DNA of 64,000 nt. Source: Microbotryum violaceum (taxonomy: Eukaryota). Below are positions 29,107 through 32,100 of this stretch, piece by piece (the stretch's first letter is position 1; the number at the start of each line of letters is the position of its first letter). The DNA lies in the NCBI GenBank assembly GCA_001244265.2, contig CDLV01000009.1, positions 1,736,001 through 1,800,000 on the forward strand. Direction: 5' to 3'. The notes beneath the pieces are model-generated. The model was not told the origin of the DNA and searched no databases. It worked only from the letters and a program-made list of their open reading frames with translations. The translations under genes and the position numbers were made by a program.

Positions 29107-32100
29107 TGTCAAAAGGGGTCAAAAGGGTATTACTGTTTTATCCCACTTAGAATAGTTTAGTATCTAGTTGTTGATATTAGCCGCGCGCGCGCCTCTAGCC
29201 TTCCAAGTGCGCGCGCCCTTAGCGCTTCTCTCTCTTCTTCAACTATCTTTACTATCTTCTTCGGCTCTCGTACTTACGTACATCGTGCCTCGGGCCTCAG
29301 GTTAGTCTTGCAATGCTAGGAACTATCTTTACTATCTTCTTCGGCTCTCGTACTTACGTACATCGTGCCTTGGGCCTCAGGTTCCTAAAAGGTTATGAGC
29401 CCACCTAGCCCATCAGCGGCGGGCGACCTCGACGTCCAGAGTGACATGGCAACAACGCCTCCACCACCTTCGTCAATCAACGACGTCGCCCCCACTACCT
29501 CCGTCACGCTCACTCAAGAGCAATTCGACGAGCTGATTAGGAACCAGCGCCCCGCACGGGACGACGACGCATTCTCCATGCGTCAGCTCCTACCCCCAGC
29601 CAACCCTCCGGTCTTTCCCGATGACTCGAAACTCACGGAGGACAACTACGTTGACTGGGACCTGACCATATCGGTCACCTTTGCCCGCAAAGTCTGCGCA
29701 TACCTGCGCAAGGGCACGCACGACCCCTCGTGGCCTCTCGCCTTACGCTCGCGCTGGGAGGATTACGCGGCCCGCGCGCTAGCGGGATTGCTCACAGTCA
29801 CCACGAAGGCCACCATTGGCCCAATTGTTCAGACGGGAAAAACTGAGGGCGACACGCATGAACAACCACAACAACAACGACACCAGCAATGCCACCCCCG
29901 GTGCTATAGCACCTAATCGCCCTCCCGACCCCACCGGCGTCACCGTCACCGCCCAAACCAAGTCGTACTCCGCGGCCGTCTCCGCCCGTTCCCATGCGAA
30001 GACCAACGCCACCCCCGCCACCGCCACGACTGTTGCCTCCCACCCGATGATTCACAACATCGCCAACTGTGTAATCATCAAAACCCCTCCCGCGACCACC
30101 TCCGAGAAAGTGCTCTCAGCACTCGATCACCACTACCCGGCCCTTGCAGGCGCCATGCCCTGCGTCATCAAGGGACAACACGGCATCCGATTCCCTAAGG
30201 ACGCCGACATCGCCGACCTGGTCGCGAATGGTCTGACCGTTGGAAAGACCTTGTGCCAAGTCGAGAAACTATTCTCAGCCACTACTGGTCTAATTCAATG
30301 CACCCTTTCTGGCTTCTTCTCCGATGTAGAGGGCCTCCGCCTCTTTGATGAGCAGATTGCCGAGTACGGCAAGGTCCTCCTTCGCCGCACTCATTACATT
30401 GGCAAGACTAGGCACATCTCTGGGGTGTATGACTTTGTTCTTGCCCTCGGGGACCCAAACAAATTGCCTCCTGCATCCATCTCCATTGAACGCGACGGCG
30501 TGACCGAGCGTATCCCGCTCAGGATCACCGGTGGCATGCGCCACTGTGTTTTCTGCCGTTCCGCGGCCCATGTCCGTAAGGACTGCCCCGTCGCCCCGGC
30601 GTGCAAGTCGTGCGCAAGCACCTCGCACGCCAGCCAGCATTGCCCGGGCCGCCGCTTCGCGTCGAGCCCCCAGGGCACTCCCGAGTCACGTGCCGCGCAA
30701 GCCTCCACCATGACCAAAGCCCCCCGGCCTCCAAGTCGATCCCTGCGCCACCCGCGCCCGACCGCTCGTTGAAGACCAAAAAACGTCGAGTGAACCCAGA
30801 TCAGGACCTGGCTGCCCAGCCCCAAGATCCATCTAACAGGGCTCAGCCTGAACCCCTGTCGGAGACTCCTCGCCCCGGTTTCTCCTTCAATTTCCCTCCC
30901 AACTCCGCCCCCCTGCCCGCCTCCAACCAGTCAACTGCCCCTCCCCTCGTTGAAAAATCCTCCGAGTCCCCCAGCTCGGAGACGACCCCTTCGCCCCCAA
31001 GCCCTGCTCCGGCCACACCAACGCCAAAGACGATCATCACTCGTTCCCAGTCAATTGCTGCCCTCTCCACACCAGCCACTCGTGAAGACCCGCCCACTCC
31101 GCCTGCCCCCGAAGCCTCCGAGCCGAACCCCCGGCCCTCCTCGCCGTTGCCCTCAGCGATCAAAGCCCGACCCGATGCCACCGACGCCGACGAAGATGCC
31201 GAAGAAGAAGGCAAAGACCAAGAAGCACCCCCGAGGACGTGGACGACGTTATGGAGCAAGACGATGAGCACAATTAAGATCCCAAACGTGTCTTTTGTTG
31301 CTGCCAACGTGCAGTCAATCAATGAAGATCGTAAGCGTGCCTCTCTTTTCTCCAATCTCCGCTCCCATAACGCCGATGTCTTTCTCCTGAGCGAAACGGG
31401 CCGACCTTCCCCGGAAAGGGTTGCCCAGTGGACTCAGGAGTGCCAAGACTTAAAGCTCTCCGCTCTTTTCACTCCTCTCAACAACACCGCTATACTCTGG
31501 AAGAGCGACTCCGTGGTCATCACTATTGATCCCGAGTCACCTCCCAACACTCTTCGTGCCTCTTTCGCTTTCCCCGACCGAGTCACCGACGCCACCTTTC
31601 GCGTGGGAGACTCAAAAATCCGGGTTGTATCAATATACGCGCCTTCCTCCGACAAGCCAGACAAAAAGCGTTTCCTCTCACATCTCAGCACAGCCCTCCG
31701 ACAAGTCGTGCGCGACGAGCCCTCGCCGCCTGCGCTCTTAGTCGGGGGGACTGGAATTGTGTTGAGTCCCAACCCCTCGATTCGGAGAACCAAAACGGGA
31801 CGAATTATGGGGGCCAGGAGATGCGCGACCTTGCCACGGCCAACAACCTCTTTGATGTCTATCGGCTTCACCATCCCAAAGGACGAGCCACGACGAATCG
31901 CTCAGCGCCCGGCACGTGCCGTCGCCTTGACCGCATCTATGTCTCGCCTGATTGGGTCGACCTCTTCCACGACCACAAAATCTGGGCTCCTGTCCTCAAA
32001 TCGACGCACTCGATGGTGGCGGCGCGGTTCCAAGTGCCGGGCGCAATCGACATCGGTCCGGGTAAATTCAAGTTGGGTTTGCACGTGATCGAGGGCGACG

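Follow-up and report, generated by a model that had tools for sequence, protein, structure and literature searches.

The 64,000-nucleotide (nt) stretch of the Microbotryum violaceum genome analysed here, called the window below (GenBank assembly GCA_001244265.2, contig CDLV01000009.1, positions 1,736,001 to 1,800,000 of the forward strand), holds at 29107-39159 a decayed copy of a Ty1/copia retrotransposon of a family that we call C. Both of its long terminal repeats (LTRs) carry an intron-shaped unit, which is the subject of this study: a 60-nt segment, X, is followed by a spacer beginning with a donor-like GTTAGT and by a second copy of the segment, X', and spacer and X' together read as a GT..AG intron. 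In window coordinates, the features of the element and of a related solo LTR are as follows.

29102-29106 (+): left target-site duplication GTCAA; the right copy lies at 39160-39164
29107-29390 (+): 5' LTR, Ty1/copia family C, subfamily A, in the two-X state
29225-29240 (+): pyrimidine (CT) box abutting X, a putative marker of transcription start at 29241
29241-29300 (+): X, putative first exon of 60 nt between start site and splice donor, ending CAG
29301-29380 (+): intron-shaped unit of 80 nt, GTTAGT...CAG, composed of spacer and X'
29301-29320 (+): spacer beginning GTTAGT
29308-29314 (+): TTGCAAT motif, a tentative candidate for a polyadenylation (poly(A)) signal
29315-29320 (+): hypervariable junction J, here GCTAGG, its final G abutting X'; presumed landing point of first-strand transfer
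29321-29380 (+): X', copy of X, with branch-like TACTTAC (29351-29357) and acceptor CAG
29381-29390 (+): LTR tail 3' of the acceptor, its start varying by lineage (GTT, ATG, GGT or TTC)
29391-29402 (+): primer-binding site, sequence GGTTATGAGCCC
29830-35002 (+): non-LTR retrotransposon (RVT_1) inserted in the copia gag region; position of the left edge approximate
35323-38896 (+): broken copia pol in several frames: protease barrel, integrase, then RVT_2
38903-38909 (+): polypurine tract, a G-run
38910-39159 (+): 3' LTR, two-X state, junction identical to that of the 5' LTR
39010-39069, 39070-39089 and 39090-39149 (+): X, spacer and X' of the 3' LTR
59791-59993 (+): solo LTR, subfamily S, with a single X (59925-59984) and target duplication AGAAG

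The unit sits within a real, recurrent LTR architecture of an otherwise ordinary copia element. The hallmarks of Ty1/copia are present (direct LTRs, target duplication, primer site, polypurine tract), integrase (rve, in 35323-36738) lies upstream of the RVT_2 reverse transcriptase (in 37436-38896), and the LTR termini read TG..AA, not TG..CA. We take GGTTATGAGCCC to resemble the half-tRNA-iMet site of Drosophila copia. The two LTRs differ by 11 mismatches over 250 nt and a 24-nt gap; the 3' LTR is without 24 nt of its U3 (unique 3') region, and its first X ends CGG, not CAG. At the start of the 5' LTR the first 10 nt are doubled (29107-29126), inside the target duplication. The nested non-LTR element (~29830-35002, +), with a zf-RVT match below cut-off and poly(A) at 34991-35002, carries ATGAAA 10 nt upstream of its tail. 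A 29-nt X pattern matched five times in the window and never in 100 shuffles. Tandem Repeats Finder did not list the doubled unit. Because a 412-nt contig of public run X1, which is possibly DNA and possibly close to the source of the assembly, covers the unit of the 3' LTR without a gap (39011-39422, 2 differing letters), that unit is not an assembly error. Two other identities were considered and rejected: a Penelope-like element (PLE-type reverse transcriptase with GIY-YIG, pseudo-LTRs) is excluded by the copia domains and true LTRs, and an introner, a whole insertion that forms an intron and is spliced out of host genes (PMC12130899), is excluded by the position of the unit inside an LTR.

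A sequence-only reading of the window had described this layout, and its particulars stand. X and X' agree at 59/60 positions in the 5' LTR and at 54/60 where the layout recurs at 39010-39149, TACTTAC lies 23 nt before the end of X', and the solo LTR joins its one X directly to GTTCTAATA. The presence of the unit in both LTRs, offered there as a sign of passage through reverse transcription, is real but says little, as any LTR feature would do the same. The solo LTR had been called a related, spliced form. It equals such a form in sequence, its descent from a spliced molecule being at most presumptive, and it belongs to family C, but to another subfamily, S, whose two-X form has a different spacer.

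To place the unit in its family, we surveyed the genome (33 Mb, 20 contigs) with two U3 patterns, which gave 63 and 70 matches; with four extra places added, all listed places but two were retrieved. Parsing yielded 131 family C LTRs with 172 X copies, in a genome that an X pattern matches 186 times. One X is found in 92 LTRs, two in 37 and three in 2; by subfamily, the one/two/three-X counts are 20/7/1 in A, 14/16/0 in B, 50/10/1 in S and 8/4/0 in F, so that one-X and two-X states both occur in all four, and each subfamily has its own spacer. The matches of subfamilies A and B lie mostly on the two largest contigs, C1 and C2. A tree was made for 121 LTRs, ten of the 131 having no U3 or X fit for use; spacer, X' and the base directly before X (-1) were excluded from it, and its bootstrap values had not settled. 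X state changes 27 times on this tree, 14 of these changes being forced by well-supported branches; a count as low was reached in 18/500 shuffles, and three sets of identical rows contain both states. X state flips about as fast as copies arise. We regard two-X as the standing form because a one-X LTR cannot give rise to the spacer. A single recent duplication from a one-X ancestor, which the sequence-only reading had named as fatal to its own interpretation, is ruled out: two-X forms occur in four subfamilies, with spacers that diverged along with them.

In the 39 multi-X LTRs, X was compared with its own last X'. Mean differences are 2.46 within the same LTR, 2.92 against other LTRs of the same subfamily and 10.6 against other subfamilies; shuffles within subfamilies reached the observed value in 0/10000 trials, or 2/10000 with transitions skipped, p-values that, like those given below, are nominal, as related LTRs were treated as independent. 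Single changes follow the same pattern: an A-to-G change in the branch-like motif is present in both copies of 7 LTRs and in one copy of only 1, and a G-to-T change in all X copies of 3 LTRs. The likeness begins immediately 3' of the CT box and continues up to the AG that precedes the donor. X' tracks its own X both within and between subfamilies, as a phylogeny and identity test proposed beforehand had anticipated, and the independent evolution of the two copies that would have counted against concerted change does not hold.

The junction between spacer and X', from the TGCAAT motif to X', is by comparison hypervariable, with 6 distinct types in 8 LTRs, 11 in 16, 5 in 11 and 4 in 4, against 3, 1, 4 and 2 types when the final 7 nt of U3 are compared in those LTRs. 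Its letters keep a CTC or CC that resembles the U3 end. A G stands directly before X' in 26/39 LTRs and before the first X in 1/39; position +4 is changed in 6/39 X' copies (four times to G) and in 0/39 first copies. One-X LTRs of subfamilies A, B and S have a G at -1 in 9/84 cases, as opposed to 1/1004 other U3 C sites. These amount to about seven separate insertions and are scattered on the tree, which shows no single origin for them; in one LTR pair, the G is found in the 5' LTR only. The retroviral U3/R junction, where R denotes the terminal repeat of the RNA, receives the RNA 5' end, and a cap-derived G has been proposed there and disputed (bioRxiv 10.64898/2026.04.24.720579). In Rhodotorula, a CT box directly precedes a mapped transcription start (PMC4624585). 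Junction marks and CT box would put the start of transcription at X and make X' the landing site; a G before X' would be expected if reverse transcriptase lands the first strand there.

Two further copia families in the window, D and E, have the same layout with X sequences unrelated to that of family C and to each other.

3905-4028 (-): family D, two-X, with X at 4028-3974 and a 69-nt GTATGC...TAG unit at 3973-3905 that ends in the X copy
8951-9088 (-): family E, with X at 9088-9042, a GTGTGT...TTGCAAT spacer and a partly deleted X copy

Their donors read GTATGC or GTACGC (D) and GTGTGT (E), and in all three families, whose X sequences are unrelated, the repeat is bounded by a CT-box/A start and an AG/GT donor. 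For each of D and E we took 30 loci, the best matches to a two-X query, which hence give no state frequency. In family D, of which 29 of the 30 loci could be parsed, a G stands before X' in 21/29 and before the first X in 0/29.

Some local observations on these families may be added. The primer site of the family D LTR at 3905-4028 (-) begins with the acceptor G; diverged copies with one X lie at 10236-10290 (-) and 13720-13773 (+), and family D X can be folded as a hairpin. A 593-nt inverted repeat (97%) around a family D LTR fragment at 9480-11143 represents a fold-back rearrangement. The family E 3' LTR at 4597-4791 (-) has two extra 24-nt partial copies of the X start after its spacer, and at 60738-60923 there are three tandem 62-nt copies, each with CAG/GTGTCAGT on the minus strand, which resembles the end of family E X. 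Elsewhere in the window, a fragment at 27149-27589 (+) resembles a Harbinger-type transposase.

The splice signals of family C are well kept: the donor is GTTAGT in 34/39 multi-X LTRs, the last X ends YAG in 37/39, and the unit measures 79-83 nt. Neighbouring genes contain short GT..AG introns, which identify the window as eukaryotic. Host introns near RNA joints are mostly 67-104 nt long, with GTRAGT-type donors and a CTRAY-like motif ~20-35 nt before the AG (several edges were fitted within 8 nt, one of them doubtful). The unit thus has the features of a U2-type intron, namely GT donor, branch motif, YAG and host-like length; the variant CTTAC was absent among the host introns examined. The RNA comparison set assembled contigs of four public runs (X1, X2, X3, X12), which give no RNA start, end or level, against 38880-56800. 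Among the public runs listed as containing the sequence, none is recorded as RNA. Contigs of runs X2 and X3 nevertheless omit host introns, as expected of RNA from a related organism; none of the joints listed comes from run X1 or X12.

The spacer also holds a motif, TGCAAT or TGAAAT, that resembles the AUGHAH found ~20 nt upstream of Cryptococcus poly(A) sites (PMC3990503). TTGCAAT is kept, with single-base variants, in the spacers of all four subfamilies and in family E; family D has TGAAAT. Near A-runs in the retrieved loci, the motif was found in 2/13 cases at a background of 0.084. Among four families with genuine tails, inspected post hoc, it lies 9-16 nt upstream in 3/4, once as exactly TTGCAAT; TTGCAAT is a weak lead as a poly(A) signal. 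A short poly(A)-tailed repeat at 19113-19140 ends in TTGCAATTTATGAGCCCCAGTC, which resembles both spacer motif and primer site; the same repeat occurs at loci L201, L203, L204 and L207, in tandem at L203 and L204. Fold prediction did not point to a U3-dependent masking of the donor in four family C LTRs: the predicted unpaired fractions with and without U3 were 0.18/0.18, 0.28/0.28, 0.27/0.36 and 0.30/0.30, unchanged in three LTRs and slightly more open in the remaining one. In family D the predicted opening falls from 0.55 to 0.33, and family E goes the opposite way. On this prediction, a poly(A) switch of the foamy-virus type is not supported for family C.

Judging from these sequence patterns, we consider it probable that the unit is a self-rebuilding leader intron, presumably spliced and renewed by ordinary LTR replication. 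Transcription would begin with the first nucleotide of X, just 3' of the CT box, and the 5' end of the RNA would lose the GT..AG unit of spacer and X', leaving X, tail and primer site. The 3' end would keep U3, X and spacer, escape this splice and end in or after X', the poly(A) site probably lying a few bases inside X'. The strong-stop DNA, copied from X and tail, could then anneal to X' and be extended to give U3, X, spacer, X and tail, whereby the intron would be restored and X would overwrite X' in each cycle; the concerted change is observed, its direction supposed. Extra bases of the strong-stop DNA, in most cases a G of the kind that copying of a cap would add, would land in the intronic junction, which would account for the pattern seen there. 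Transfer to the first X would yield a one-X LTR, and an unspliced leader three X. Both predicted three-X products were found, each with the junction repeated; in one of them, the solo LTR L005 (C13:1032455, -), one spacer is doubled behind three bases of X. The element would likely gain a first intron that promotes expression in an intron-rich host, rid the 5' end of its RNA of the poly(A) signal and keep its start site clear of errors made during transfer. The interpretation given in the sequence-only reading is in this sense partly supported. On balance we also lean towards the wider view that several unrelated copia families of this fungal lineage split R around a spliceosomal intron, that spliced genomic RNA regenerates this intron at the first transfer, that untemplated bases are dumped within it, and that one-X LTRs are mostly intronless by-products of one generation.

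Several observations weigh against a self-rebuilding intron. The LTR unit is none of the 15 joints listed (of 45), in contigs of a related organism only; a contig of run X2 carries spacer, G-ending junction and X' unspliced; and the contig ends at 39047 and 39059 that join X to the tail (in run X3 with the primer site) show what is the one-X genomic form too. Letter for letter, the single-X form equals the product of a deletion between the 60-nt repeats, and a three-X solo LTR can likewise be made by unequal recombination. In family E the junction varies (7 types), yet a G is found in 0/30 loci, and the spacer motif stands at 4/22 distinct A14 runs as compared with 3/22 controls, a flat result. 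For HIV-1 (human immunodeficiency virus type 1), the copying of the cap is itself disputed (bioRxiv 10.64898/2026.04.24.720579).

The pairing of LTRs is a further difficulty. Among 28 candidate pairs, 21 are matched by target duplication, with one/one X in 11, two/two in 3 and discordant states in 7 (4 and 3 per direction), a distribution that fits independent assortment (p 0.31, or 0.12 with three pairs added by eye). Canonical retrotransposon replication yields identical LTRs (PMC6894440), and a single RNA-splicing form, fixed once and reverse transcribed canonically, does not predict discordance; the discordant pairs therefore call for either loss of the unit at the DNA level or a non-canonical second transfer. 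A single X is hence not just the spliced form. The second transfer may also use X homology. Such homology has reportedly been proposed for yeast Ty elements by Lauermann and Boeke in 1997. Decay is no further advanced in one-X than in multi-X copies (p 0.38, 0.91 and 0.38, at low power), which mildly favours a state set at birth; at that power, the absence of an age difference led us to reject slow decay as the source of one-X copies.

The strongest alternative, which we nonetheless judge unlikely, is an unspliced tandem repeat kept alike by unequal crossing-over, conversion or slippage at the DNA level, with one-X and three-X forms as products of contraction and expansion and with splice-like signals that are leftovers or serve another purpose. 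It would accommodate the independent states of paired LTRs, the three-X solo LTR, the one-X form as a deletion and the unspliced unit in an RNA contig, but it leaves unexplained the G before X' in two families, the changes confined to junction and +4, the homogenisation up to both edges of X, the coincidence of donor and acceptor with the repeat edge in three unrelated families and, at low power, the missing age effect. A donor that serves U1 only, with polymerase skipping, explains concerted change, junction G and one-X and three-X forms equally well, has a precedent (PMC3694450) and agrees with the unspliced RNA observed; we hold it to be distinctly improbable, as it offers no reason for the kept branch-like motif, the YAG at the end of X and the host-like intron length, and as the masking of the donor by U3 is not predicted in family C. 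Splicing of an RNA that ends in the spacer, with strong-stop DNA jumping end to end and the junction rewritten in every cycle, would suit subfamily B, where almost every element has a junction type of its own (11 in 16), and the conserved motif that stops just before the variable part, but is very improbable in view of junctions repeated unchanged in both three-X copies, their CTC or CC like the U3 end, the lack of A-runs there and the RNA contig that runs through X'.

Loss of introns on retrotransposition is a textbook rule, and the exceptions known to us keep their introns by copying unspliced RNA. If a family C element does rebuild its intron from spliced RNA, it would show how a retroelement can meet the intron need of its host. 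Introns are present in >99% of expressed genes in Cryptococcus (PMC3990503), and a Rhodotorula promoter is raised ~fivefold by intron 1 (PMC4624585). The arrangement would also be a new answer to the problem of distinguishing 5' from 3' LTR in polyadenylation, and the junction would be a genomic record of bases added by reverse transcriptase during strand transfer, a record relevant to the question of cap copying. A literature search over titles and the starts of abstracts, with most subscription papers outside it, found no natural LTR element in which a duplicated exon rebuilds an intron; PMC5445492 makes no mention of intron, splicing or tandem repeats, and PMC7175516 and PMC12477816 have no bearing on the layout.

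Comparison with known systems sets out what family C shares and where it departs. According to a model reportedly due to Rogers, introns are born by tandem duplication across AG/GT, with repeats that end in AG on both sides of the GT; in family C, by contrast, the 20-nt spacer has no one-X counterpart, and the repeat is renewed rather than drifting. Canonical Ty1/copia elements (PMC6894440) have the same LTRs, primer site, polypurine tract, 5-nt target-site duplication and integrase before reverse transcriptase, and their homology-driven first transfer joins R/U5 (unique 5') of the 5' LTR to U3 of the 3' LTR; family C differs in having its start-proximal sequence in duplicate around a GT..AG unit, so that start and landing site would be separate copies, and the LTRs of one insertion often differ in X state. 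Penelope (PMC2377424) has a 75-nt intron 46 nt after the start that is spliced, needed for expression and kept through retrotransposition, but it is not an LTR element, no duplicated exon is reported for it, and retention is ascribed to selection and a minority of unspliced RNA. In the foamy virus LTR (PMC3694450), too, a major splice donor lies upstream of the poly(A) signal, of which family C has only a candidate; there, suppression is independent of splicing and switched by RNA folding, and no repeat is involved. Split-intron retroviral vectors (PMC3182074) likewise make a working intron when reverse transcription copies LTR splice signals, but they are engineered, one-way and meant to stop copying, and their acceptor is internal, not an exon copy. 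HIV-2 (PMC3315320) has an optional 140-nt leader intron in its 5' untranslated region that raises Gag translation; this intron is kept since spliced RNA is excluded from particles, with no rebuilding and no duplicated exon. In HIV-1 (bioRxiv 10.64898/2026.04.24.720579), strand transfer similarly writes the RNA 5' end, with an extra G, into the U3/R junction, but while a G-rich junction absorbs the errors there, those of family C would fall in a separate, intronic junction.
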